64,000 nt of DNA, from the NCBI GenBank assembly GCA_963677745.1, contig OY782391.1, positions 704,001 to 768,000 of the forward strand. Reading direction: 5' to 3'. Position numbers and translations under genes: made by a program. This DNA comes from Candidatus Altimarinota bacterium (GTDB lineage Bacteria; Patescibacteriota; Gracilibacteria; UBA1369). How positions within the stretch are numbered: position 1 is the first letter of the stretch; every line of letters starts with the position of its first letter. This document shows positions 12,350 to 50,300 of the stretch, piece after piece. Below the pieces are notes generated by a model, which did no database searches, was not told where the DNA came from, and was given only the letters and a program-made list of their open reading frames with translations.

Positions 12350-13278
12350 TCCATGATCTGGCTATTATTGGTACCGGGCCGGCCGGAATTTCGGCGGCTA
12401 TTTATGCGGCACGCGGACAGCTTTCCACAGCTATTTTCGGCGATGAGACCAAAGGCGGGCTGGCCCGTGCTCACGTAATTTCCAATTATTTCGGGGTGGC
12501 GGGAAATCCCGCCGGCCCTGAATTGATCAAGACCGGGTTGGACCAGGCTGTTGCTTTCGGGGCTGAACACCGCCGGGAAGAAATAGTCGACCTGTCGTTG
12601 CAGGAAGACGGTCTTTTTTTACTTAAAAGCGCCAACCATAACTCTTACCGGTCGCGAACGGTTATTATTGCCACCGGACAAAGTCTGCTGCTGGCAGGTA
12701 TTCGCGAAGAGAGGGAGTTCGCCGGAAGAGGGGTTTCCTATTGCGTGACCTGTGACGGTTATTTTTATAAAAACAAGCCAGTGGTGGTGGTGGGCAACGG
12801 CGACTATGCGGCCGAAGAAGCATTACAGCTTTCCGCCTACAGTTCGGATATCACTATTTTAAGCCACGGAAAGCCTTTCCGGATCGGGGATGATTTTCTC
12901 CGTGAATTGCAGAATAAAAAAATCAGCCTGCTGGTAACCCCCAAACTGGCCTCTTTTTCAGGGGAAAACGCTCTCGAAAAAATTACTTTCACCTCTCCCC
13001 TGTCCGACGGCCGGGATTCGTTGACTACGCAGGGTGCTTTTATGGCAATCGGGATGGCGGGGGCCAACGCTTTTGCTAAAAAACTCGGATTGGAGATGAA
13101 TGGGAGCTATATCAAAACTGACCAAGACGGCAAGACCAATATAAAAGGCCTCTTTGCCGCAGGCGACTGCACAGGTGCTCCCGCCCAGGTTGCGGCCAGC
13201 GTCGGTAATGGTTGCAATGCCGCTCTCGCTGCAATAAAATTAATCCGCGGTTTAAACAGCTACATACAGTATAATTAA
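12346..13278 (+). CDS. trxB: Thioredoxin reductase-like FAD oxidoreductase
   Basis: GTGPAG, GVSYCVTCDG, GLFAAGD. Confidence 0.88.
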   Translation: MIHDLAIIGTGPAGISAAIYAARGQLSTAIFGDETKGGLARAHVISNYFGVAGNPAGPELIKTGLDQAVAFGAEHRREEIVDLSLQEDGLFLLKSANHNSYRSRTVIIATGQSLLLAGIREEREFAGRGVSYCVTCDGYFYKNKPVVVVGNGDYAAEEALQLSAYSSDITILSHGKPFRIGDDFLRELQNKKISLLVTPKLASFSGENALEKITFTSPLSDGRDSLTTQGAFMAIGMAGANAFAKKLGLEMNGSYIKTDQDGKTNIKGLFAAGDCTGAPAQVAASVGNGCNAALAAIKLIRGLNSYIQYN

Positions 13279-32760: not shown

Positions 32761-33768
32761 ATGACTAATCCCCCAAAACTGACTACCCCACAGGAAAATC
32801 AAGACGAGCGGCGTCTCGATTTAATTTCCGGCGTACTGGTCGATCTGGTGGATATCTGCAGATTGACTCAAACTCCCGGCATGGCTCCGTTTATCAAAAC
32901 GACCTCAGGCCTGCCCATGGCTTCTTTTCGCCAGAAAATAGCCTGGCTCCTGTCTCCCGTCGAACCCGGACGGTCACATCCGGAAAAAGAAGACGTCTTG
33001 GACGGCGCTGATCTGGAAAATATAGATTCCACCGAGATTAAAGAGTTTATCGAAACTTCAGGAGAAGCCAAATTGCTCGAACACCAGAATAAAATCAGAC
33101 AATTACTGCAGACCGTGCTGGGCCACCCGCAATACCGCCAGGCAGTCCATGATTACCTGAACCAAAGTTATTCGGCCGAAGTCAGGGCCGATCATTATAA
33201 GTTTTTGTCGCATCTGGGTTTTTTGGAAATACCTTTGGTTGGCAAAGATCAAAAGTTCTACCACGGAATTTCTTTGGGAGAATTTGGCGACGATGTCGAC
33301 AATCCGGAAGAAACACAATTAAAAATGGAACAACCCGGCGATTATTTCGACAGGATCGACAAAGTTCTCAAGCAGGGAATAAGAGCCACGGAATACCCTG
33401 AAAACCTGCCCGGACTGGAGTCGATTTCCTGCTCGGAAAACATTAATTATGTTCAGGGCATTGCCGGTGTCTGGTTCCGGCTTACCGATGGGGAAAAACT
33501 TTGGGGACGCACCCTTAGCGAGGTGGAGGGCCGGCACCTGGTTCAGCCGGTTAAAAAACCTCCCTTCCATCTGGTTCTAAGATCCCCCGCCTTCTATGAC
33601 GCCAAAGACCAACTGGAAGTCAGCGACATCTTCAGTGTGGTCAACCGAAAATATTACAAAAGATTTATCAGAAAACTGATTGCCCATCTGCGCACCGCCG
33701 AATTCCCTTTCCAGATGATTGATCCGAATGGGAAAACCCGCAATCCTGGCGCAGAGGACGAGTCCTGA
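32761..33768 (+). CDS. Hypothetical protein
   Basis: 335-aa ORF; FYHG and SIS motifs (see findings). Confidence 0.7.
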   Translation: MTNPPKLTTPQENQDERRLDLISGVLVDLVDICRLTQTPGMAPFIKTTSGLPMASFRQKIAWLLSPVEPGRSHPEKEDVLDGADLENIDSTEIKEFIETSGEAKLLEHQNKIRQLLQTVLGHPQYRQAVHDYLNQSYSAEVRADHYKFLSHLGFLEIPLVGKDQKFYHGISLGEFGDDVDNPEETQLKMEQPGDYFDRIDKVLKQGIRATEYPENLPGLESISCSENINYVQGIAGVWFRLTDGEKLWGRTLSEVEGRHLVQPVKKPPFHLVLRSPAFYDAKDQLEVSDIFSVVNRKYYKRFIRKLIAHLRTAEFPFQMIDPNGKTRNPGAEDES

Positions 33769-33777
33769 TCATCCCGA

Positions 33778-34713
33778 TTATAAATGTTTTTTCAGGAGCG
33801 GCCCGATGTCTATCCCGTCCAGCTCCAGTTCTACCGCCGGCTTCCCGGCCCACCCGGGATCCTGTGCTTCATACGCGGGCCGCTCTGTCCGGTAAAAAAT
33901 TCCCAGCGGTAATCGCCCGTCCTTCTTTTTCCCGCCCGCGGCCGCCTTTCCCTCAGCAGTCTCCATCGCCCTTGCCATAGCCTTCTGCCAGTCGCCGCTG
34001 TCATGACCTGCCTCTTCCAGGCTGTAAGTATTTTCACGGTAATAATCAAAGGTCTGTGCCTTATTATAGGTCACGCAGGGTTGTAAAATATCGATCAGCG
34101 CAAAGCCGGGATGTTGCAGTCCTGTCTGTATCAACTTGACCAGTTGCGGCATATTGCCTGCAAACCCCCTGGCCACAAAAGTACCGCCGGCCGACAGAGC
34201 CACCGCCAAAGGGTTCAAGGGATCGGCAACCACACCATGCGGCGTGGAAGGCGAAACAAAACCCCGGGGTGAAGTTGGCGTCATCTGTCCCTTGGTCAAT
34301 CCATAGACCTGATTATGATGTACCAGACAGGTGATATTTACATTGCGCCTGATTGCCTGCAGCAAATGTCCCAATCCTATCCCATAGGCTCCCCCATCTC
34401 CCACGCTTACCAGCACCGTCAAATCACGATTGGCAAATTTCACGCCGCTGGCACAGGGAATCGCCCGGCCGTGCAGGCTGTGCAGACCGTAAGTATTGAG
34501 CCAGTGGGGAGTTTTTCCGCTGCAGCCGATGTCCGATATATAGGCCACCTGTTCGGGGTCAATCTGCAGCCCTGACAAAGCTTGTTTTACAGCCAGCAGC
34601 ACACCGAAATTTCCGCAGCCCGCACACCAGTCCGGCCGCGCCATGGTATTAAAATCAGACAGTTGGATAAGTTCATTCCTTTTTCCTCCTTTAATTGCCG
34701 GCTGCCCGCCCAT
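33778..34713 (-). CDS. korB: 2-oxoacid:ferredoxin oxidoreductase beta subunit
   Basis: WCAGCG, SDIGCS, LHGRA, GDGG TPP motif, YGLTKGQ, LQPCVTYN; substrate not determinable. Confidence 0.92.
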   Translation of the reverse strand: MGGQPAIKGGKRNELIQLSDFNTMARPDWCAGCGNFGVLLAVKQALSGLQIDPEQVAYISDIGCSGKTPHWLNTYGLHSLHGRAIPCASGVKFANRDLTVLVSVGDGGAYGIGLGHLLQAIRRNVNITCLVHHNQVYGLTKGQMTPTSPRGFVSPSTPHGVVADPLNPLAVALSAGGTFVARGFAGNMPQLVKLIQTGLQHPGFALIDILQPCVTYNKAQTFDYYRENTYSLEEAGHDSGDWQKAMARAMETAEGKAAAGGKKKDGRLPLGIFYRTERPAYEAQDPGWAGKPAVELELDGIDIGPLLKKHL

Positions 34714-34770: not shown

Positions 34771-35124
34771 CTATTTTTCCAGCGACTTTAAAATATCCTC
34801 CACCGCTTTGGTATCTGCCTGTGTTTCTTTGGCCTCGGCCTCCGCCTGGTCCATCCGGTTGGTAAGGGTTTTGACAGCCATCAGATCTGTACCGATTTTA
34901 TCCATCAGCGGAGCGGTTTGCCCGTTCAGTTTTTGGTCATTCTCTTCAATACTCTGTTTTTCTTTGACCAGAGTGTCATAAAGTTGCCTGGTCAATTCAG
35001 AGTCGGGATTTTTAAGAAGCTCCAGGATCTGTGCTTTCTTATCATCTGGCAAAGCCTGCATGGAGGCCGATTTTTCGATCAAAGCCACCAGTTCCTCGAT
35101 AGTAAATTGATTTTGATTGGGCAT
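34771..35124 (-). CDS. Hypothetical helical protein
   Basis: 117-aa coiled-coil-like ORF. Confidence 0.65.
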   Translation of the reverse strand: MPNQNQFTIEELVALIEKSASMQALPDDKKAQILELLKNPDSELTRQLYDTLVKEKQSIEENDQKLNGQTAPLMDKIGTDLMAVKTLTNRMDQAEAEAKETQADTKAVEDILKSLEK

Positions 35125-35148: not shown

Positions 35149-36726
35149 TTAAACAGTCTGGTTTTTTCTTTCCGAAGAATAAACCTGGGCATATTGCATC
35201 GGCTGGTCTTTTTTCTGGTCTTTTGCCGGTAATGGCCTGGAAACGATCACTTCATTATGGGCCAAAGCGACTTGGGTTGGCACGGGAGTATCTGTCTCTA
35301 ACATGTAGTTGGGGAAGTTGTGTTTTTTGGAGAATGTTTTTAGCTCGGCCACCAGATTTTTGAACATATCGGAATTTGTGCCGAAAACGGTCGCTGCAGC
35401 GATGTTACTGGCCAGACTGTCAACCTTTCTGCTCACCTCTTTATCGGTAAATTCCTTATTTTCCATCATTACCGGTGGCTGATCGGCGGTCACAGCTAAG
35501 CGTTCATCGGGACTTATCCTTTCCTGGCGTCCCCACTGGGCGGCCTGTGCGTCATCTTTGGCCTTTTCATATTTCAACAATCTGGGCTGTCCCAACATTC
35601 TGGCCGATGTTTCCCCGGCGCCCTGTATCATGGTTACATATTGCAGCTTTTCGTCGGCATTTTTCTGAATGCAATTGAACTGAGTAACTTCTCTACCGTT
35701 AACCGTCGCCTCTGTCATGGTCATTACCACCATCGTTCCCACCGGACATTTTTCCGACTGCAGATATTCAAGCTGTTTTGAAAGCTCCTGTTGATTTGTC
35801 TCCAAATTCTTTTGAGTTTTCTCGCTCTCGGTAGGAGTGCTGAATTTGGCTCCTTCCACATTGGTGCTGCCGTCCAGTGCCCTGACCACGTCTACAAAAG
35901 CTTTCTTTTCTGAAGGGGCCTGGGTGGCAGTGCGTTCGGCAATATTATGTTCCACTGTGATCTGAAATCTGATGAACTTTCCATCGGTAGAGCGATCCAT
36001 AATCACCGGATCACCATCCATACTTTTTATTTCCACATGGCTTCTGTTTCCCATCAGTTTTTTTAAACCGTCCGCTTCACTTTTGTCCAAAGGTTCATCC
36101 GATACCCGCAGTCTTTCCAGTAACGCCTGATTTAATCTGGCTTCGCCGTTAACCGCCTCGGTTACACCGGGGGCGACGGTAGCTTTTTCAGCTGCTGCCG
36201 GTGCGGCAGTTGCGGCAAATTCAACAGCTCTTCTGGCAGCCAGCGGGTTAAAATCAACGCCCAACGGATCCCCGGGCAGCGGTTGATAATCTGTCTTGTT
36301 TTTATCCAGTGCGGCGAAAATTGTATCAACCTGAGTGAGAGTCCGGCTAATTGCGTCTTTGTTTGCGCTGATATTTGTTCTAACGGCTTCATCCAGTGCT
36401 TTGTAACTTTCTTTTAATTTTGCGTATGCATCGAGCACAGCCTTGTCCTTTGGCTTGTTGGCGTCGAGTGTTGTTTTGTAACCGGTTTGTTCCTTGGTCT
36501 TGCCCTGGTCTTCCTGTTTCAAAACAAACTTAGCCTCCATCTTCTTAATCTGGGTGTCTACGTCCTCACGGGCGGACATCACGATTGCCTTAATTTGATC
36601 GGGAGTCTTGTCTTTGATCGGTTCGGCCACTTCCGGAGCTTTTTGTTCGTTCTCCGCGAAACAAGCCAGTCTCTTCTCTAAAAACAGTCCTCTGTCTGAT
36701 TGTGAAAATGCCTTTAAATTTTTCAT
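35149..36726 (-). CDS. Hypothetical protein
   Basis: 525-aa K/A/T/Q-rich ORF with no classical signal peptide. Confidence 0.75.
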   Translation of the reverse strand: MKNLKAFSQSDRGLFLEKRLACFAENEQKAPEVAEPIKDKTPDQIKAIVMSAREDVDTQIKKMEAKFVLKQEDQGKTKEQTGYKTTLDANKPKDKAVLDAYAKLKESYKALDEAVRTNISANKDAISRTLTQVDTIFAALDKNKTDYQPLPGDPLGVDFNPLAARRAVEFAATAAPAAAEKATVAPGVTEAVNGEARLNQALLERLRVSDEPLDKSEADGLKKLMGNRSHVEIKSMDGDPVIMDRSTDGKFIRFQITVEHNIAERTATQAPSEKKAFVDVVRALDGSTNVEGAKFSTPTESEKTQKNLETNQQELSKQLEYLQSEKCPVGTMVVMTMTEATVNGREVTQFNCIQKNADEKLQYVTMIQGAGETSARMLGQPRLLKYEKAKDDAQAAQWGRQERISPDERLAVTADQPPVMMENKEFTDKEVSRKVDSLASNIAAATVFGTNSDMFKNLVAELKTFSKKHNFPNYMLETDTPVPTQVALAHNEVIVSRPLPAKDQKKDQPMQYAQVYSSERKNQTV

Positions 36727-36821
36727 TTTTTTATTTTTACGTAAATTTATCCTCTTATCTTACCATAAAAAGCCCGTTTTTTCAACAGGTTTACCGCTTC
36801 CCGGTTAGACAATCTCTGGCT

Positions 36822-37526
36822 TTAGGCAGCTCTGTATTCCACCACGTTGGCAAATTGTGCCAGAATCGAAGTCAACTCTTCCAGTTCGGCTTCCCCGAAC
36901 CCCCTCAATCCCTCAAACTCCTCACGCAGCGTTTTGGCGTTGCGGAAGCCCTGCAGCACCCATTTGTCTGCTCCCCGGATGGCTTCTCCCATTGCCCGTA
37001 AAACATGCAGATCATGAAAATCCGGCAAAATTGTGCTGCGAAACTCGTATTCCACTCCCGATCCTTTGATCAGTTCTATGCTCCGTCGAAGTACCTCCTC
37101 CCCTACGTCGACCCCCACCAGCTCCCGGCGATAGGGTAGGGCGTCTTTCAGGTCCATGGCGATGTAATTCACCACCCCGGCCGCCAGGGCACTCTCCAGG
37201 GCCGCCGGATTGGTCCCGTTGGTGTCAAGTTTCACCTGAAAACCCAGATCGCGGACCGCTTTCATTTTATCGAGCAAATCAGGGTGAATGGTCGGTTCAC
37301 CGCCGCAAAAAACCACGCCGTCCAGCATCCCGCGGCGTTCCTTCAGAAAATTCAAAACCGTTTCAAACGGTATCGTCTGTGTCAGCTCTTTCAGTCTCTC
37401 CGGCAGGACGAATTCGGCGTTGTGACAGAAACCGCAACGCAGATTGCATCCCCCGGTGAAGAGAATGCAGGCCAGCCGGCCGGGAAAATCGGTCGCCGTA
37501 AACTTGGTCAGAGCTGTTATGATCAT
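36822..37526 (-). CDS. nrdG: Anaerobic ribonucleotide reductase activating enzyme (radical SAM)
   Basis: DFPGRLA, GCNLRCGFCHN, GGEPT, KLDTNG; start overlaps the upstream stop (TAATG). Confidence 0.93.
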   Translation of the reverse strand: MIITALTKFTATDFPGRLACILFTGGCNLRCGFCHNAEFVLPERLKELTQTIPFETVLNFLKERRGMLDGVVFCGGEPTIHPDLLDKMKAVRDLGFQVKLDTNGTNPAALESALAAGVVNYIAMDLKDALPYRRELVGVDVGEEVLRRSIELIKGSGVEYEFRSTILPDFHDLHVLRAMGEAIRGADKWVLQGFRNAKTLREEFEGLRGFGEAELEELTSILAQFANVVEYRAA

Positions 37527-37975
37527 TATTGGACATGCTTTTGCTGAATTTCCGAAACCTCATTGGCGCGCCAGATCTCTTTGCCGTTCTCATCCACGGC
37601 GATCAGTGTTGGTACGCTGCGGACATTGTATTTGTCGGCGATGTCCCAGAAATTGAGCATAGTGTTATCAATGCCGAAATATTCAATACTGCTGGTCTGC
37701 AGCCAGTTTTTGACGGCCGGACACTTGGGGCAGGTATTGGTGGTGAACAAAAGCAGTTTTGGCTTGGCCGGAACGGCGCTCTCTTCTTTCAGACAGCCTC
37801 CGTATTGATGTACAAACTTGGAATTGGCCTCACAGGTGGCCTTAAAATAAACCCGGGAATAAAACTCCGATTTTTTGCCGAAATTATACTGACTGACCGG
37901 ACGATGATAGCCCATTACTCTGGTCCAAATTTCGCACTTGGTGCGGTCGGCGACTAGCGGTGTGGCGTTTTCCAT
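37526..37975 (-). CDS. Stand-alone NrdD glycyl-radical domain fused to a glutaredoxin/thioredoxin-like domain
   Basis: RTKCEIWTRVMGYHRPVSQYNFGKKSEF, then LLLFTTNTCPKCPAVK...YNVRSVPTLI. Confidence 0.88.
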   Translation of the reverse strand: MENATPLVADRTKCEIWTRVMGYHRPVSQYNFGKKSEFYSRVYFKATCEANSKFVHQYGGCLKEESAVPAKPKLLLFTTNTCPKCPAVKNWLQTSSIEYFGIDNTMLNFWDIADKYNVRSVPTLIAVDENGKEIWRANEVSEIQQKHVQ

Positions 37976-37981
37976 TTTTGT

Positions 37982-39802
37982 TTATTGGTTAATGAGTAAG
38001 GCTTTTTGTTTGGAGATGTGTTTGGCGCGGATTTCCGTATCCAGCTTGGCGTCACCCTGATAACCGATTTCTTCGTCGCATCTTGGACAATAGTCGTGTT
38101 CGCCGGCGATATAACCGTGCTTGGGGCAGATCGAAAAAGTCGGGGAAATGGTGATATAGGGAAGCCTGAAACTGCTCAAAGCCCGTTTTACCAGTTGACG
38201 GCAGCTTTCGGCATCATGCAGCCGTTCACCCAGATAAAGATGCAAAACTGTGCCCCCGGTATATTTGGTTTGGAAACGGTCCTGCATCTGAAGTGCTTCA
38301 AATACATCGTCGGTGTATTCCACCGGAAGCTGGGTGGAGTTGGTATAATAGGGATAATCGGTAGTGCCGGACTGGATAATATCGGGATAGCGTTTTTTAT
38401 CCTCCTTGGCGAAACGGTAGGTGGTGCCTTCGGCCGGACTGGCCTCCAGGTTGTAAAGATTGCCGGTTTCTTCCTGAAAACGGATCAGTTGCTGCCGCAT
38501 AAACAGCAGAATTTCTTCGGCGAAATCGCCGCCGAACTGGGTGGTGATATCTTCTTCCCCGCCGGTGAAGTTCTTGATGGCCTCGTTCACGCCGTTGATG
38601 CCGATGGTGGAGAAATGGTTGTTCAGGTGACCCAGATAGCGCTTGGTGAAGGGGTAAAGACCCAGATCCATCCATTTCTGGATTTCTTTTCTTTTAAGTT
38701 CCAGGGAGGTTTTGGCATATTCCATCAATTGTTCCAGCCGGGCAAAAAAGCCGACCTTGTTGCCGCGGTACAGATATCCGAGCCGGGCGGTGTTGATGGT
38801 CACCACTCCCACGCTGCCGGTCATCTCGGCGGACCCGAACAGGCCGTTTCCCCTCTTCAGCAGCTCATTCAGATCCAGCTGCAGACGGCAGCACATCGAG
38901 CGTACATGGTGGGGTTTCAGGTCGGAATTGAGGAAGTTTTGGAAATAGGGCAAGCCGTATTTGGCAGTCATTTCAAAAAGAGAATCGGTATTGGGTCCGT
39001 ACCAGTCGAATTCCGGGGTGATGTTATAGGTGGGGATGGGGAAGGTGAAAACACGCCCTTTGGCGTCGCCCCGGAGCATCACTTCAATATAAGCCTTGTT
39101 GATCATTTGCATTTCCTTTTCCAGCTCGCTGAAGGTGTATTTGAAAGGTTGTCCTCCCAAAAGCAGCCGGCGGTCTTTCAGGTCGGGGGGGCAAACCCAG
39201 TCCAGGGTAATATTGGTAAAAGGTGTCTGTGTCCCCCAGCGGGAAGGAACATTCAGGTTGAACACAAAAACCTGGATGGAGTCATAGACGTATTTATAGG
39301 TTTTTTTCTCCACATAGTCTTCCAGTGCGGCCGCGTCGGCTACCATGTCCTTGAGCTCATCACGGGTCTCCTCGGCGTACTTGCGCACATAGGGGGCCAG
39401 ATAGGTGTCGAAAGAGGAAAAGGCCTGTGCGCCCGCCCACTCGTTCTGCAGAGTGCCCAGAAAGTTGACCATCTGACCGATGGCGCCGGCCAGGTTGCGG
39501 GGAGGAGTTGAATCTATTTTATTTTCAATACCGTTAAATCCTTCTTCCAGCAGTTGCCGGAGAGACCAGCCGGCGCAGTATCCGGAAAACATGTCCAGAT
39601 CATGTATATGAAAGTCCCCTTCGCGATGGGCCTTGCCGACTTCTTCAGGGTAAATATAGGATAGCCAGTAGTTGGCGGTAACTTTTCCGGATGTGTTTAG
39701 AATCATCCCGCCCAAAGAATATCCCTGGTTGGAATTCGCGTTTACGCGCCAGTCGGATTTCGAGAGATACTCCTCCAGAGTCTCCCTTGCCTCAATCGCC
39801 AT
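37982..39802 (-). CDS. nrdD: Class III ribonucleoside-triphosphate reductase catalytic subunit, lacking ATP cone and glycyl-radical loop
   Basis: DWRVNANSN, HIHDL, YCAGWS, FTFPIPT, SMCCRL, YNLEASPAEG, YYTNST, YTGGTVLH, CPKHG..CPRC; no RVxGY. Confidence 0.93.
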   Translation of the reverse strand: MAIEARETLEEYLSKSDWRVNANSNQGYSLGGMILNTSGKVTANYWLSYIYPEEVGKAHREGDFHIHDLDMFSGYCAGWSLRQLLEEGFNGIENKIDSTPPRNLAGAIGQMVNFLGTLQNEWAGAQAFSSFDTYLAPYVRKYAEETRDELKDMVADAAALEDYVEKKTYKYVYDSIQVFVFNLNVPSRWGTQTPFTNITLDWVCPPDLKDRRLLLGGQPFKYTFSELEKEMQMINKAYIEVMLRGDAKGRVFTFPIPTYNITPEFDWYGPNTDSLFEMTAKYGLPYFQNFLNSDLKPHHVRSMCCRLQLDLNELLKRGNGLFGSAEMTGSVGVVTINTARLGYLYRGNKVGFFARLEQLMEYAKTSLELKRKEIQKWMDLGLYPFTKRYLGHLNNHFSTIGINGVNEAIKNFTGGEEDITTQFGGDFAEEILLFMRQQLIRFQEETGNLYNLEASPAEGTTYRFAKEDKKRYPDIIQSGTTDYPYYTNSTQLPVEYTDDVFEALQMQDRFQTKYTGGTVLHLYLGERLHDAESCRQLVKRALSSFRLPYITISPTFSICPKHGYIAGEHDYCPRCDEEIGYQGDAKLDTEIRAKHISKQKALLINQ

Positions 39803-39822
39803 GCTTAAAATTGTTAAAGTAG

Positions 39823-39870
39823 CCACATTATCTGGTGGAGGCGGCTACGAATCAATACTAGATATAGTAT
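39823..39870. promoter_or_regulatory. Tandem NrdR boxes
   Basis: CCACATTATCTGGTGG (39823-39838) and ATACTAGATATAGTAT (39855-39870), 32 bp start to start, upstream of nrdD. Confidence 0.85.
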
Positions 39871-40001: not shown

Positions 40002-40823
40002 TCACAAACAAGAGATTTGTTTTGTGATTGCCGGAAAATTTGGGTAGTCATCCAGCAGTTGCCTTGACCTGATTGCATGTTTTAAAACTTTTGAGGAGAA
40101 GATTTGGGACTCCGTATTTTGATAAGGGGTGGAACCGTCTCCAATGGAAATTAAGGGAGGATAGTTTTCCTGGCAAACTGCAGACACCAAACTTTCAGTG
40201 GTGGGAAATTCAAAACTGCAGGGGTATGGTTCTTCTCCGGCCAGGGCGTTGAAAAGATTGTATCTCTCCACCACGATTAAGTCATAAGCATCTCCCGTAG
40301 AGGTTAGTTCTGCTATCTTTTTGGCCATTTTCCCAAAGGTGTCGACTTTTGTTTTGTCTCCTTGGGTGTCCCAGGACGGTCCATCAATAGCCTCGCCGGA
40401 TGGTGAAATCAGCGTCGCGTCAGCACCGAGAGAAACTAACTGAGCGTGAAGATCATCCTCCGCAGAAACATCCAGAACCCTCATACCTTCTAAAACCCGC
40501 CTTTTTTGCAAAGTGGGAAAAGGCAGCACGATGCGATAACCGTCTCTTGTCTGTGGCGACAAAACCTTTTCCAGTCTCTGCCTAAGTATAAAGCTCATAG
40601 TTGTCAGCAAAAGAGAGTCTTCAAAGGACAACCAAATTTCTTCATCTTCCGGTACAGGTCGGTACAGATTATCCAGAACCGGATAGGAATCATCAAAAAA
40701 GACAAAACGGCACTGTCTGGGGTCATTGGCTTTCTCGGAAGCGGGCAACTCGGTTTCCTGATAGAGACTGCGAATTATCAGGTCCGTTGCTTCATCGTTT
40801 TCTTTTAATAAGCGTTTGGCCAT
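40002..40823 (-). CDS. Hypothetical protein (possible degenerate methyltransferase-like fold)
   Basis: 273-aa ORF; LEGMRVLDVSA and YDLIV segments. Confidence 0.6.
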   Translation of the reverse strand: MAKRLLKENDEATDLIIRSLYQETELPASEKANDPRQCRFVFFDDSYPVLDNLYRPVPEDEEIWLSFEDSLLLTTMSFILRQRLEKVLSPQTRDGYRIVLPFPTLQKRRVLEGMRVLDVSAEDDLHAQLVSLGADATLISPSGEAIDGPSWDTQGDKTKVDTFGKMAKKIAELTSTGDAYDLIVVERYNLFNALAGEEPYPCSFEFPTTESLVSAVCQENYPPLISIGDGSTPYQNTESQIFSSKVLKHAIRSRQLLDDYPNFPAITKQISCL

Positions 40824-40831
40824 TTGAAAAT

Positions 40832-42715
40832 CTATATTACAGCCATATACTTAGAATATATTTCTTCAGCTGTCAATTGACGGCCGGACCATTTTAAAAT
40901 TTTAGCGTCCATAAAGATGCCGGTTTTTGCTGTGATATATTCGCACATTTGCGCTTGTTGATTCATTTCCACGCCGATTTTCCATTTACACCGGCTTAAG
41001 ATCTTCTTTACCTCCCTGCCGTGGAAAGGGACAAAGTAGGTGATTGGCAGCAGATTGGCTTTTACGCCGTCTTTTTTGAGCATCTGCAGCACTTCCAGCA
41101 AAGCATCTTTGGGCGACCCCCAGGTCACAAAAGTCACATCCGCTTTCTCTGCCGGATAGGCGGGACCAGCTGTAAACGATCCGTCCCTGGCCGGACCGAT
41201 CAGCTTGGGGGCCGGCAAGTCTTTCAGACAGGATTCCAGTTTTTTTAGCCGTTTGGCATGCATGGCAATGCGGTTTTCTTCAGTCTCGGTCAAATCTCCG
41301 CTCTCGTCATGTTCATCGCTGGAGGAGCGGTAACGTCCCCCTTTTGTTCCAGGCAGCAGGCGGGGCGAAACTTCGTCGTCGGTAAATTTATAACGCAAAA
41401 ATCCGCCGTCAGGCGATTGGTGTCCCAGTTTTTTAAGTGCTGCCACTCTGGCCGGATCCCGTATCAGTTTTCCCCGGTCGATTTTCAGTTCTTTTGTAAC
41501 GAATGGCCTGATATTTTTAATGCTTTCCGAAAGGTGTTTATCGCCCAGAATTATTGCGGGCATCTGGTATTTTTCCGCCAGATTAAAGGCTTCAAAAGTT
41601 TTGTAAAACAGCTCGTCAAAATCCCCCGGTGCCACTACCAGTCTGGGAAATTCCCCCTGCGAAGCATGAATCACAAATTGCAGATCGCTCTGTTCGGTGC
41701 GGGTCGGGAGTCCGGTGGAAGGTCCTCCGCGCTGTGCCTCATAAATCACCACCGGTGTTTCAGTCATGCCGGCAAAACCCAGGGCTTCGGACATCAGTGA
41801 AAACCCGCCGCCCGAGGTGGCGGCCATGCTTCTGGCGCCGGCCCAGCCGGCGCCGATGGCCATATTTATGGCGGCCAGCTCGTCCTCCGGTTGTTTGACA
41901 ATAATATTATAATCCCTGGCGGCCTTGGCCATAAAATGCAGCACCGAAGAAGCCGGAGTCATCGGATATTCAGCCACCAGTTTCACGCCGGCCCTGATCG
42001 CTCCCAGACAAACGGCATCGTTTCCTGTCAGCAGCAGGCGGCGCGGCTGTCCATTTACCGGGCGCAGGCCAAAACCAAAAGTGGTCACATCAAAATTTTC
42101 AACTACATAATTATAGCCCGCCCGCGCCGCCGCCAGATTCTTCTCCACCGTCTCCGTACCTTTCCTGGCAAAGTTCTCTTTTAAAACTTTTAATAATAGT
42201 TGTACCGGCAGTCCCAGCAATGCCAAGACGGCTCCTAGTCCAACTACGTTTCTGGCTGTGGACAGGCCTGCTTTTTCAGCCAGTCTGCTCAAGGGCACAT
42301 CAAAAATCAGACGGCCGTTACCGGCAGTCCCAATCCCCTTTTTCCACCCGCCCGGGAATTTATAATCGGGTGTTTCTGCGCCGTCATAAATGACGGCGCC
42401 CCCCTGGGCGATTTCCCTCAGATGCAAATCCAAAGTCTCCGCATTAAGAGCCAACAGTAAATCAACCTTATCCTTGTGTATGGAAACTTCAAAATCGGCA
42501 ACTCTGATCACGTTGGAATTATGTCCGCCGCGAATCAGTGAAGGATATTCAGCGTTACCGAATACCGAAAGTCCCGCCCGCGAACAGAGCAGTGCCATCA
42601 GGTGTCCGGCGCTCTGAATTCCGCTTCCGGCCTCCCCGCCGACCATCCAGTTCAAATCATTGATTTTTTTCCGGGCAACCGTTTTTCCACCGGTTCCGGG
42701 GGCCGCTTCTTTCAT
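40832..42715 (-). CDS. korA: 2-oxoacid:ferredoxin oxidoreductase alpha subunit (gamma-alpha fusion)
   Basis: GGEAGSGI, YPSLIRGGH, YPMTPAS, EDELAA, TSGGGFSLM, QRGGPSTGLPT. Confidence 0.93.
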   Translation of the reverse strand: MKEAAPGTGGKTVARKKINDLNWMVGGEAGSGIQSAGHLMALLCSRAGLSVFGNAEYPSLIRGGHNSNVIRVADFEVSIHKDKVDLLLALNAETLDLHLREIAQGGAVIYDGAETPDYKFPGGWKKGIGTAGNGRLIFDVPLSRLAEKAGLSTARNVVGLGAVLALLGLPVQLLLKVLKENFARKGTETVEKNLAAARAGYNYVVENFDVTTFGFGLRPVNGQPRRLLLTGNDAVCLGAIRAGVKLVAEYPMTPASSVLHFMAKAARDYNIIVKQPEDELAAINMAIGAGWAGARSMAATSGGGFSLMSEALGFAGMTETPVVIYEAQRGGPSTGLPTRTEQSDLQFVIHASQGEFPRLVVAPGDFDELFYKTFEAFNLAEKYQMPAIILGDKHLSESIKNIRPFVTKELKIDRGKLIRDPARVAALKKLGHQSPDGGFLRYKFTDDEVSPRLLPGTKGGRYRSSSDEHDESGDLTETEENRIAMHAKRLKKLESCLKDLPAPKLIGPARDGSFTAGPAYPAEKADVTFVTWGSPKDALLEVLQMLKKDGVKANLLPITYFVPFHGREVKKILSRCKWKIGVEMNQQAQMCEYITAKTGIFMDAKILKWSGRQLTAEEIYSKYMAVI

Positions 42716-47202: not shown

Positions 47203-47383
47203 CAATCAGTTTCTTTTCAGGTTTTTTCATTTCTCAATTCTCTCCGCCTTTACACGGCAGTTTATGTAGACCAATAGTGAAGAAGACCTGAGGCCAAAAT
47301 ACCTTCTATAAAGCGGAGATCTGTTGTTTCTATTTGCCCCCAAAAATGCTAAAATAATAAGATTATTATTTTTAACAGCGGTC

Positions 47384-50300
47384 ATGGACGGGCGGAATTT
47401 ACAAAAAGCGCTGGAAGAAAAACTCCTGGCCGGAGAAATCCGGGAAGCTGAAAATCAGGAAACCGGGGTTACGGAACTGGAAACTCAGAGAGCCGAAACG
47501 CCGGAAGTCCAGGCGGAAAACGATCAGTTAAACCAGCTCCTTTCCGACACGACCAACAAAATTAATTTCACCAGAGATCATCTCAAAATATTTGAGCTGC
47601 TTTCCCCCGGGGAAAGGGATCAGCTGTATTTATCGATAGCTGCCACCGACAGCCTGCAGGTCAAAGATATTGATTGGGAGAAGCTTTTTCAGCATCCCGA
47701 CGCCCACGCTCTACTTAAGACTATCCTGGCTATACCCGGAAGATTGAGTCTGCAAAGCGAACAGGACATAAAGATGATCTTGAAACTCCATGATGAAATT
47801 GGTCCGGCCAAACTTAAAGCCACCTGGAAAAAACTTGGCGAACCGCTGCTGGAGCGATCGTTTGTGTCACAGATCGAATCCGACCGGAAGTCCTTTGACT
47901 GGTCCAGATTTTATCTTTATCTGGTAATCGGCAGTTTTGAAAAGTCCACACTTAATCAATTGGAACTGCTTAGTGAAGCTCAGTTGAAAAAAATTGAACT
48001 GGTTTTAAAGGTATACGGCAAAGCCGAGCTGGAAAAACAATGGACCCCGGAAAACCTTGAAGATTTTGAAGAGCTGGAACAAATGAACGGGAATTATCAG
48101 CGGGATAGGGAAGATTTGCTCTCTGCCACCCAATTTACCGAAAATCTTTCCCCGGAAGTTATTAGACATCTTCCCCAGGAAACGGGAGGCGGAAGCGGTA
48201 CCAGCAGTAGAAAGAGACCCGATCACACCATCTGGCATTTCCAGGGAATTCATGGGAAATACGACCAGCTGATTAGATTTCAGAGATGTCTCGGTGTCCT
48301 TCCCACGGAACGGCTTGACCGGATATTGTCTGTCTTGAAACCAAGTAAATATCCGGTGCGTGAACCGGCTGAAAATATTTCTCTGGGACAGGCCGATAAT
48401 TTTTTGCAATTTGTCCAAACGGCCCGGCTGGAAGGCCGGCTGAATCTGGAACAGCTGTTTGATAATGCGGTGTCTTTTTCTCCCGAAAAATATGTTCCCA
48501 TAAAAGGCTTTCTCGCTTTTTTGGAAAATCAACATCTCTCCAATTCAATCACTGAAATTAATTTTCCGTCCTTCCTGAAAATGATCGGCGAGTCCACTGC
48601 GCAGGAAATAGAACAAATCAAAACAGGTACTGTCAAATACTGCGAACTCGGTTTGGCCAAAATGATCAACTGGAAACAGAACTGGGGCGACTTGCTTAAA
48701 AAAGTTAGTTTGCCGGAGTCCGAGACAGCTAATCAACTGCTCAAAGACTGCGTTGAACATCATGAGCAATATGTAGGGAAAAGGTATAGCGGCGAAAGAA
48801 ACTTCTCTCTGCTGAATCGCGATGGGAGCTCAGTTCTTGGTCTTTATGAAGCCATAAGCCAGATTGAAGAATATTTTCGGGACGATCAGGAGTTGATGTT
48901 TAAAATTGGGGAACTGGGTGAAGATAAGATGGAGATTATCCGGCTGGTTTTAAACGGGCAATATAAAAAAAATGGCAGTAAAGAATATGATTTGCCGGTG
49001 TTGGAAGGACTATTGGTCCAAATGCCCGGCCGTCTTCAATATGTAAAACCGATCCTGGACAGGGCCAAGACCTTATCTTCCGAACAGAAAAGGAGTCTGT
49101 TTTTTTTAAGCTCCTATTTTCACTCTTTTTGGGGGCACTTAAATCAACAAAATCTTTCCATTCTGGAAACGTATATAAACAGCGGTAAGGCACGGCAAAT
49201 GGAAGAATTTTTGAAAAATTTCCCAATCAAGGGGTTCGGCCCCGAAACCATTGAGAAAATGGCGGACTCCGGAGGGCCGGCAACGCTTTTTGCCTATATC
49301 GACCCGAGGAAATACAAGCCGGAAATTTTAACAGCGATTATCGACAAACTGATTGCCTTCCATTCCGCGGGTATGGACAAAAGACTCTATGAAAACCCAA
49401 CTCAAAACGGAATAAATCCGGAAAATATTTCACTGGAAAACCTTCTTTCCGTTGATGTCGGGAAATTTGTCCGCATAGCCAATTTTCTGGCCAATTACAA
49501 CTGCACTGATCCTCTTTATTATCTCACTAATTTAAACTTTGACGAAAGTGAGGAAAAACTGATGCGTAGGATCAGACAGGCTTCGGCGACCGATTATTTC
49601 TGGAACTACAGGGAAACCGTGCTTGACGAAGAGGACCTGCTTGTGCTCGAGAAAGAACAACTGAAAAAACAGACGGAAATCAGGGAGAGGATTAGTTTTG
49701 CGGGAAAACTATTTGGGGCAAAACTGACGGGAGAAAAAATTAAAAACTTAGAAAGTTTGGCAGAAGCGGTCTGGCAAAGGCTCAAGTCCAATCAAAAAAT
49801 TCTGGAATTATTCATTGAGACTTCTGGCAGAATAAGTCTGCGCGAGGAGGCCCTGGCTCTTTCTGACGCAATGCTGACTGAACCGCTTGTCTGGCAATAT
49901 CATCTACTTGAACAAATTTTTGACGACGCACTCATGGAAAGTGCGCTTCAAATGATTCTTGAATGTAAAAAACAGGGCGTAGAAGATATTTTCAGGGAAG
50001 AAAACTCTCCCAGTCGTATTGATCTCCGTGGATTGACCGAGGTAGCCAAAGTTTGGGATGAAAACAGGGAATATCTGCAGGAGCCGGGTTTTCTGAAGAT
50101 ATTTGAAGGGCGCGGGGGTCTGCTTCGAGATTTTCTCAACATCAAAGACTCTTCAAAAAACAATTATCTTCCTCCCGCCCTGCGAAATAACGATCTGGAA
50201 CCGGATATGGATGAAAATCAGCAGCGGAAAATCTTGCCCTGGCTGCAGCACTTTGATGTCGAGAACGGCTGGGACTGGAAAGCCTTTATAAAGTGGATAG

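Follow-up and report, generated by a model that had tools for sequence, protein, structure and literature searches.

We analysed a 64,000-nucleotide stretch of the genome of a Candidatus Altimarinota bacterium (GenBank assembly GCA_963677745.1, contig OY782391.1, positions 704,001 to 768,000; hereafter the window) and found in it an nrd operon in which the catalytic chain of a class III anaerobic ribonucleotide reductase (RNR) is encoded by two open reading frames (ORFs). The first, nrdD-large, carries the catalytic and zinc motifs and ends before the glycyl-radical loop, and the second encodes that loop followed by a thioredoxin-fold (redoxin) domain and leads directly into nrdG, the gene of the activase. 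The same break recurs in related loci from several phyla, and in a predicted complex the separate loop docks on the large chain. The locus probably encodes a natural two-polypeptide class III RNR, in which the loop would dock in trans and the tethered redoxin would be the likely reductant. The features of the operon, with positions in the window, are:

37982–39802, minus strand: nrdD-large, 606 amino acids (aa) from the ATG at 39802; class III RNR barrel and zinc motif
38882–38899, minus strand: finger-loop motif SMCCRL of nrdD-large (double Cys, with Met)
38078–38128, minus strand: zinc motif C-x2-H...C-x2-C (CPKH...CPRC) of nrdD-large
37976–37984, minus strand: junction; nrdD-large TAA (37982–37984) and a 6-base spacer, then the small-ORF ATG (37973–37975)
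37526–37975, minus strand: small subunit, 149 aa; glycyl-radical loop, linker and thioredoxin-fold domain
37838–37942, minus strand: glycyl-radical segment, residues 12–46, RVMGY (Gly22 codon 37910–37912)
37766–37837, minus strand: linker, residues 47–70; short helix, then a low-confidence stretch
37529–37765, minus strand: thioredoxin-fold redoxin domain, residues 71–149 (CPKC 37721–37732; Pro122 of SVPT 37610–37612)
36822–37526, minus strand: nrdG, activase of the radical S-adenosylmethionine (SAM) type, 234 aa; TIGR02495, 179.6 bits (cut-off 131.15)

The large chain ends before the radical loop

The ORF list offers an upstream GTG at 39826 as an alternative start of nrdD-large (37982–39826). 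The alignment to NCBIfam NF006126 begins at the ATG at 39802 (residue 9 when counted from the GTG), and the family alignment therefore favours the ATG start. The protein matched Pfam NRDD (PF13597) over profile positions 2–529 of 562 with 572.7 bits (cut-off 26.2), and NF006126 over positions 97–651 of 684 with 977.7 bits (cut-off 548), a coverage that leaves out the ATP-cone part and the final 33 positions. No ATP-cone appeared among its Pfam and NCBIfam profile matches, and the chain contains no RVxGY glycyl loop, stopping at NRDD profile position 529 of 562, 31 residues past CPRC. The motifs YCAGWS and YNLEASPAE are both present. The finger-loop cysteines of SMCCRL are invariant across an alignment of 23 large chains, and all 120 related large chains of at least 330 aa have both SMCCR and the C..H form of the zinc motif. 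The counterpart of CPKH...CPRC in the Prevotella copri enzyme (8p23) is, by alignment, CxxC...CxxC, metal binding by the motif of the window being predicted, and a His zinc ligand is documented for the Thermotoga maritima NrdD (PMC4493059). An initial annotation, made from the sequence alone, had described these four motifs and the missing RVxGY, and its coordinates for nrdD-large proved correct.

The missing loop opens a small redoxin-bearing protein

The small ORF provides exactly the NRDD end that nrdD-large is without. Its residues 12–44 matched NRDD profile positions 531–562 with 26.4 bits (cut-off 26.2), and residues 75–125 matched Glutaredoxin (PF00462) with 26.8 bits (cut-off 22.9), a marginal pass; both halves, for which the initial annotation had proposed profiles of the NrdD C-terminus and of glutaredoxin/NrdH, thus scored above a Pfam cut-off. 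In a Pfam search at E values up to 0.1, NRDD was the only glycyl-radical match, with no glycyl-radical family of the pyruvate formate-lyase (PFL) type. The redoxin domain fell below the NCBIfam cut-offs for NrdH (TIGR02194, 16.3 vs 85.75 bits), thioredoxin (TIGR01068, 16.3 vs 96.8) and the YruB type (TIGR02196, 28.8 vs 88.55). NCBIfam has no dedicated model for small loop proteins, which matched only the tails of full-length NrdD models, far under cut-off. Within the 1.34-Mb source genome, PF13597 matched nrdD-large and the small ORF alone, indicating a single NrdD locus and a single loop.

Database searching returned 56 near-length relatives of the small protein, several named Candidatus Peregrinibacteria. 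The combination of loop and redoxin is not a chance one, since 32 of these 56 carry both Pfam domains. Gly22, Cys82, Cys85 and Pro122 are invariant in 24 aligned close relatives and again in 26 distant ones (groups from the candidate phyla radiation (CPR) and Spirochaetia), and the spacing from the Gly to the CxxC ranges from 40 to 93 residues across 56 related two-domain proteins. An AlphaFold model of the small protein (mean predicted local distance difference test (pLDDT) 72.8) has a beta hairpin that bears the Gly loop, then a helix (residues 48–58), a stretch with pLDDT below 50 (60–69) and a thioredoxin fold with the order beta-alpha-beta-alpha-beta-beta-alpha, whose block pLDDT is 83–87 over residues 71–140 and 68 over 141–149. 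The best Foldseek matches of this domain were thioredoxins (E about 2e-4, target template-modelling score up to 0.74).

Downstream, the TAA of the small ORF and the ATG of nrdG share one base (37526), and, judging from this overlap, the small-subunit gene is translationally coupled to nrdG, whose product also matched the radical-SAM domain PF04055 (73.9 bits). The loop, the Gly codon, the CPKC...SVPT domain and the one-base overlap all lie where the initial annotation had placed them.

The split is conserved across related loci

The TAA of nrdD-large and the ATG of the small ORF share one frame, two codons apart (TAA ACA AAA ATG), so readthrough had to be weighed; if the TAA were read through, or were an error, the product would be one NrdD chain with a C-terminal redoxin, a form that exists elsewhere (loci L044/L066 and L087 of the set described below). 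A sequencing error, which the initial annotation had named as a danger, found no sign in contigs of four public runs from two studies, which over 37400–38600 have zero differing letters, junction TAA included, a weak support insofar as these contigs possibly include the source sample. TAA also terminates the small ORF and nrdG, and the gene callers of other assemblies start the small protein at the same Met. We further fetched 137 related loci, of which 128 were assigned to a split or unsplit state from tblastn matches and reading frames; left out were nine that gave no large-chain C-terminal match (L014, L041, L086, L088, L132, L135, L137, L139 and L143). The break lies at the same point, between zinc motif and loop, in 119 of the 128 loci, and nine are unsplit; having been picked by likeness to the small protein of the window, and including the window itself (L003) and one duplicate place (L044 = L066), these loci do not give a prevalence. 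In 83 of the 119 split loci the ORFs lie in different frames. Among these is L039, a member of the same family whose large chain is 80% identical and which is the closest to the window in the genome set, so readthrough of an in-frame TAA is not conserved. Readthrough or error is accordingly very improbable, and an arrangement conserved in this way cannot, on sequence grounds, be an assembly error. The initial annotation had asked whether relatives encode one continuous protein: most do not, and at least two do (L044/L066 and L087), which leaves the split of the window standing, the redoxin link being independent of it.

Decay of an nrdD gene into a pseudogene was also considered. A further gene for an RNR large subunit is present in the genome (an 808-aa frame with 702.5 bits for PF02867), and NrdD is patchy in close kin, with matches in 2 of 11 same-family genomes. 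Three intact ORFs with invariant catalytic motifs, conservation of the same split in more than 100 loci, and the presence of the split form in Cupriavidus necator H16, whose anaerobic growth requires NrdDG, all speak against decay and make it hardly credible.

Occurrence in other bacteria

CPR bacteria, Spirochaetia (cultured Treponema among them) and Proteobacteria (such as C. necator H16, Ralstonia and Paracoccus) all have members with the split, which is thus distributed far more widely than the lineage of the window. In an evenly drawn phylum sample of 401 genomes, 123 gave a match, and by eye count the loop lay in a frame of less than 200 aa in about 61 genomes and of at least 600 aa in 37; about 49 genomes had two matches (eye count, in the scan including the 11 same-family genomes). 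A scan of one genome per species gave split loci in the cultured Proteobacteria Castellaniella hirudinis, Achromobacter sp. M1, Duganella sp., Aquabacterium commune, Marichromatium bheemlicum, Thiocapsa imhoffii and Alloalcanivorax xenomutans. Among plasmids, the loop-coding stretch was present in 161 records, including Ralstonia (132), Bradyrhizobium (7), Cupriavidus (5) and Paracoccus (4). The split is more widespread than the initial annotation, which mentioned short stand-alone NrdD tails in other genomes, had supposed, and it includes cultured Proteobacteria and Treponema.

The order large gene, small gene, nrdG is common to three annotated examples:

Ralstonia solanacearum CP047139.1: large chain 685 aa, 'ribonucleoside triphosphate reductase'; small chain 58 aa, 'hypothetical protein'
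Sulfuricystis multivorans pSTJ2: large chain 712 aa; small chain 57 aa, 'nrdD'
Cupriavidus necator H16 pHG1: large chain 676 aa; small chain 66 aa, 'nrdD'; then nrdG

Counted from the start codon, the small chain has about 45–65 aa in eight Proteobacterial examples, compared with 149 aa in the window. The gene layout of H16 may already have been described by Siedow et al. in 1999. The split form works in a living cell, since H16 has the split locus and its NrdDG is reported to be essential for complete denitrification (PMC2864759).

Several further observations concern these relatives. In many Ralstonia plasmid records (e.g. H8–H10 and H12–H21) the loop stretch has no listed gene or is a 'hypothetical protein', an annotation gap possibly overstated by the incomplete gene table of PLSDB. 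Eleven relatives have many in-frame TGA and no other stops in nrdD and nrdG (L053, L056, L059, L063, L070, L073, L074, L084, L089, L101 and L103), a pattern consistent with TGA coding for an amino acid; their nrdD is split in the same way, with TAA or TAG as the stop. A separate CPR clade of 12 tree rows with support 100 (L016–L022, L024, L025, L028, L029 and L032) has no linked redoxin, and in most of its listed loci the small loop protein has a Cys-rich tail (such as CGCGE or GCATC), and in most of them it stops no more than a few bases from the nrdG start.

Predicted docking of the loop in trans

We modelled the complex of large and small chain from the large-chain alignment, zinc and the small-chain alignment. 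The pair scored 0.74 (runs 0.74, 0.73 and 0.79), against 0.01 for the best control, a mark that 58 of 80 solved complexes reached and only 2 of 110 mismatched pairs. The runs had at least 82% of contacts in common, with a partner pLDDT of at least 70. Confident contacts came only from small-chain residues 6, 10–26 and 29–46, and the docked loop rests on the surroundings of the large-chain zinc motif (555–561 and 568–576) and on an extra tail of the large chain (579–603). The model of the two chains places the glycyl-loop part of the small protein and leaves its redoxin unplaced. Cys14 of the small chain, near-invariant in close relatives, stands in the model next to the large-chain residues Cys559 and Cys572 (606-aa numbering).

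A zinc site shared between the chains, with Cys14 as fourth ligand, was considered and is not claimed. His562 aligns with the second Cys of 8p23, which gives a complete C-H-C-C in the large chain and weakens the idea of a shared site, and Cys14 is replaced by Thr in spirochaete and archaeal relatives, contrary to a role as zinc ligand.

Repeated linkage of a redoxin to the loop

An exhaustive search of 1.84 billion cluster representatives with the small protein gave 1533 matches at E values up to 0.001, and the best 150 of these were sorted by motif: 56 had loop and CxxC redoxin (125–202 aa), 77 the loop only (55–109 aa), 12 the redoxin only, and five were of other kinds. A second large two-domain group, with the motif CPNCPP, has source names from Spirochaetia, including Rarispira pelagica. 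Its loci, exemplified by Treponema lecithinolyticum ATCC 700332 and Treponema sp. OMZ 840, have a split nrdD with ATP-cone, then a loop-linker-redoxin gene, then nrdG. Of the 128 classified loci, 14 split ones carry the redoxin fused to the loop and 16 have it as an ORF of its own between loop gene and nrdG. It is also fused in three unsplit rows, which represent two places: L044 (= L066, on a Candidatus Peribacteria contig) and L087 (on an archaeal contig) each encode an unbroken NrdD-loop-redoxin chain. These one-chain fusions came from the genome scans, after a protein search for longer fused forms had given only ordinary NrdDs of 710–776 aa (eight matches) and one 400-aa partial.

In a FastTree phylogeny of 120 large chains (midpoint root; L066 was left out, together with rows whose large-chain match began beyond residue 300 or spanned fewer than 250 aa), the CPR loci with a linked redoxin form one 18-row clade (support 95), where L039 and L040 group with the window. 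Elsewhere in the tree lies the Spirochaete clade (support 100), adjoining the unsplit archaeal fusion (support 89), and since the two redoxin-linked clades lie apart, the loop-redoxin fusion arose at least twice. The fusion is rarer than the split and, as far as the sequences tell, recurs in the CPR lineage of the window and in Spirochaetia. The tree also requires at least four changes between split and unsplit states, and the split state is held across a 94-row clade spanning Proteobacteria and CPR.

We also looked at what lies between the loop gene and a separate redoxin gene. A conserved reductase gene at this place was rejected, the gaps in 11 loci, to which no Pfam scan was applied, holding unrelated variable ORFs or nothing. 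In two Gracilibacteria-class genomes (L046 and L050) the gap contains ORFs some 243 aa long whose opening resembles M..(I/F)IDESG, unrelated to the inserts of other loci. The split Spirochaete forms (L067, L081, L094, L096, L117 and others) have a charged heptad-like helix (EKE...LE...E-rich) at the end of the large chain, and their small chain opens with a matching amphipathic helix of about 25 residues ahead of the loop; these helices may form a coiled-coil clasp in place of the strand pairing of the CPR model.

The redoxin as candidate reductant

Several lines of evidence favour, without proving, a built-in reductant that would be recharged by a TrxB-like enzyme: the extra finger-loop Cys, a Glu in the NLE motif, the TrxB genes of the genome, the lack of a PFL-like match and the repeated linkage or fusion. 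The Glu of NLE aligns with that of NIE in the T. maritima NrdD, whereas the T4 and P. copri enzymes have no Glu there; by pattern match, NLE is present in 96 of the 120 related large chains of at least 330 aa. The source genome has two full-length TrxB-like genes. One lies in the window (12355–13242, plus strand) and scored 255.8 bits over positions 2–299 of 300 of TIGR01292, below the cut-off of 343, with 129 bits for Pyr_redox_2; the other, elsewhere in the genome, scored 291.5 bits. The genome search gave no PFL-like match and, for the single family PF02955, no glutathione-synthetase match. Separately, the PF02867 RNR gene has a second ORF of the glutaredoxin family (63 bits) at a distance of about 10 kb (G000:C1:565931-566110 and 576592-578157), and this ORF may encode the redoxin of that enzyme.

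A number of points weigh against a two-chain enzyme driven by its own redoxin. The Pfam score of the redoxin is barely over the cut-off, and the domain stands far under every NCBIfam redoxin cut-off. The complex model does not place the redoxin domain with confidence. The docking of the loop may itself reflect solved one-chain NrdD structures known to the predictor, and shows likeness rather than binding, because the chains are halves of a split gene that resembles these NrdDs. A linked redoxin is absent from 95 of the 128 loci, so it is not needed for the split enzyme as such, and the literature search gave no biochemical data for any split NrdD. An ordinary thioredoxin is also encoded in the genome (one found), and the aligned Glu of NLE is only presumably the diagnostic Glu of the thioredoxin type. 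The finger loop MCCR keeps the Met needed by formate users, so formate may serve as well; an MCCR loop with Met is compatible with formate or thioredoxin according to Burnim et al. (PMC9669993).

These points also bear on another role for the redoxin. The split being real, the domain might keep the loop and zinc-side cysteines reduced for activation by NrdG or for recovery, with formate or free thioredoxin driving turnover. In the model the thiol cluster Cys14-Cys559-Cys572 adjoins the tether point, which would suit such a role, as would the retained Met of MCCR and the separate thioredoxin; the E. coli NrdD, moreover, reportedly needs the thioredoxin system for activation. However, the spirochaete and archaeal redoxin-linked forms keep the redoxin with Thr at the Cys14 position, and a PFL-like formate source was not found in the genome. 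We hold such a role to be the less likely one, though a fair rival.

A possible exchangeable radical subunit

The following mechanism for a natural two-polypeptide enzyme is the most probable of those considered. The three genes form one operon for a class III RNR whose catalytic chain would naturally be made in two parts. Ten-stranded barrel, MCCR finger loop and zinc motif all belong to the large chain, and the loop of the small chain would dock into the barrel in trans beside the zinc motif, at the place taken by the C-terminus of a one-chain NrdD. NrdG would install the radical on Gly22 of the small chain, and the CPKC domain, held on a flexible linker behind the loop, would most likely act on the active-site cysteine pair as a built-in reductant and would in turn be recharged by one of the two TrxB-like enzymes. 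There is good support for delivery of the radical in trans. The initial annotation had gone further and proposed one exchangeable subunit that brings both radical and electrons, such that oxygen would cost the cell only the small part; its structural half, a separate loop chain fused to a CxxC domain, holds and is conserved, and its functional half is plausible.

Whether the small chain would in fact be exchanged is a separate matter. The split might have no such function, the two chains forming a permanent equimolar complex after a neutral break in a hinge, with the small chain no more replaceable than the whole enzyme; we judge this quite possible, falling somewhat short of an even prospect. 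It would fit a break that always lies in the hinge between zinc motif and loop, extra tails on both sides that touch in the model (large-chain 579–603), tight coupling of the genes (a 6-base spacer here, a 4-base overlap in Ralstonia) and a tree in which at least four state changes imply that split and unsplit forms flip rather easily. On the other side, the split is kept across the 94-row clade of Proteobacteria and CPR, and many carriers of the split form are denitrifiers or microaerotolerant and meet oxygen, neither of which amounts to a test. A more far-reaching version is tentative: a cross-phylum clade, comprising denitrifying Proteobacteria such as C. necator H16 and Paracoccus as well as CPR bacteria and Spirochaetia, would have made the labile glycyl radical a cheap exchangeable subunit, charged by NrdG off the enzyme and replaced after oxygen cleavage, to which two or more lineages would have added a reductant.

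Relation to known systems

In every catalytic feature the enzyme is a class III RNR; it departs from the class in not being one chain. It shares barrel, finger loop, zinc motif, RVxGY and radical-SAM activase with the one-chain NrdD/NrdG systems of E. coli, phage T4, T. maritima and P. copri, whereas its loop is a separate gene product, an ATP-cone is absent and a thioredoxin-fold domain follows the loop. A thioredoxin-dependent NrdD of Neisseria bacilliformis, of the 'NrdD2' type, was reportedly described by Wei et al. in 2014. The window enzyme likewise has the extra finger-loop Cys and a Glu at the position common to T. maritima, but that enzyme has SCCR and a free redoxin, whereas here MCCR retains the Met and the redoxin is tied to the radical-bearing chain.

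Glycyl-radical enzymes are commonly taught as single chains that bear their own radical loop, and to our knowledge the only known stand-alone loop is GrcA (YfiD), the back-up for PFL. GrcA is likewise a small glycyl-loop protein that works in trans with a large chain and is presumably activated by the cognate activase; it is of the PFL type and backs up an intact enzyme after damage, whereas the small protein of the window is of the NrdD type and is the only loop in its genome. A 2026 review (June) gives spare-part proteins among glycyl-radical enzymes as known only for formate lyases (PMC13450708).

Splits and redoxin fusions of other RNRs offer partial parallels. The class II RNR of Pseudomonas aeruginosa is split into NrdJa and NrdJb, two consecutive ORFs with a C-terminal zinc/cysteine module on the second (PMC9669993); class and chemistry differ, and there the second chain bears the reducing cysteine tail, whereas in the window it bears the radical. 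A split RNR is known also for a phage class I gene. Phage nrdD can be interrupted by introns or homing endonucleases, in one account in 6 of 16 phages with split RNR genes (PMC3653736); those mobile elements sit at various sites, whereas the window has a 9-base gap, no element and a break point conserved across phyla. In the Grx::NrdB fusion of Facklamia ignava the redoxin was shown to be the reductant, and a grx::nrdD fusion is listed, uncharacterised, for Lachnospiraceae bacterium TWA4 (PMC6187632). The F. ignava fusion concerns a class I radical subunit and an N-terminal redoxin, and has in common with the window a redoxin on an RNR component. The screen reported there required 90% coverage of the RNR profile and so could not see small glycyl-loop proteins. 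A full-text literature search, with most subscription journals outside it, gave neither a conserved bacterial NrdD with a separate glycyl-loop gene nor a loop-redoxin small subunit, and a prior mention of the split NrdD may exist.

Genomic neighbourhood

Weak regulatory-type sites flank the operon, such promoter- and terminator-like sites being no more frequent in the scan than in shuffled sequence:

39827–39855, minus strand: promoter-like site (weak), upstream of the nrdD-large ATG; 9 of 12 matches
36773–36789, minus strand: terminator-like hairpin (weak), after nrdG

The operon stands between genes for the beta (33778–34713, minus strand) and alpha/gamma (40832–42715, minus strand) subunits of a 2-oxoacid:ferredoxin oxidoreductase, about 6 kb apart, with ORFs lacking Pfam matches between or beside them (40002–40823, 35149–36726, 34771–35124 and 32761–33768). 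The nrd block may be an insertion between the oxidoreductase subunit genes, since the small protein was matched in just 2 of 11 same-family genomes. The window also holds a 2413-aa ORF at 47324–54565 (plus strand).

Implications

The small gene belongs to no curated family and is often a 'hypothetical protein', or unlisted, in Ralstonia records, and screens that demand near-full coverage miss the loop or call the large chain truncated. If the two-polypeptide reading is right, an obligate stand-alone RNR loop would make delivery of a radical cofactor in trans a normal mode of operation, and the loop-redoxin fusion points to an electron route into the enzyme in small-genome CPR bacteria and Treponema. 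Such a loop would give a direct handle on how glycyl-radical enzymes are activated and survive oxygen, and the split form is present in cultured, genetically tractable bacteria. Were the small chain in truth an exchangeable radical carrier, the class III RNR of this clade would be a genuine two-component enzyme, like class I with its radical subunit.

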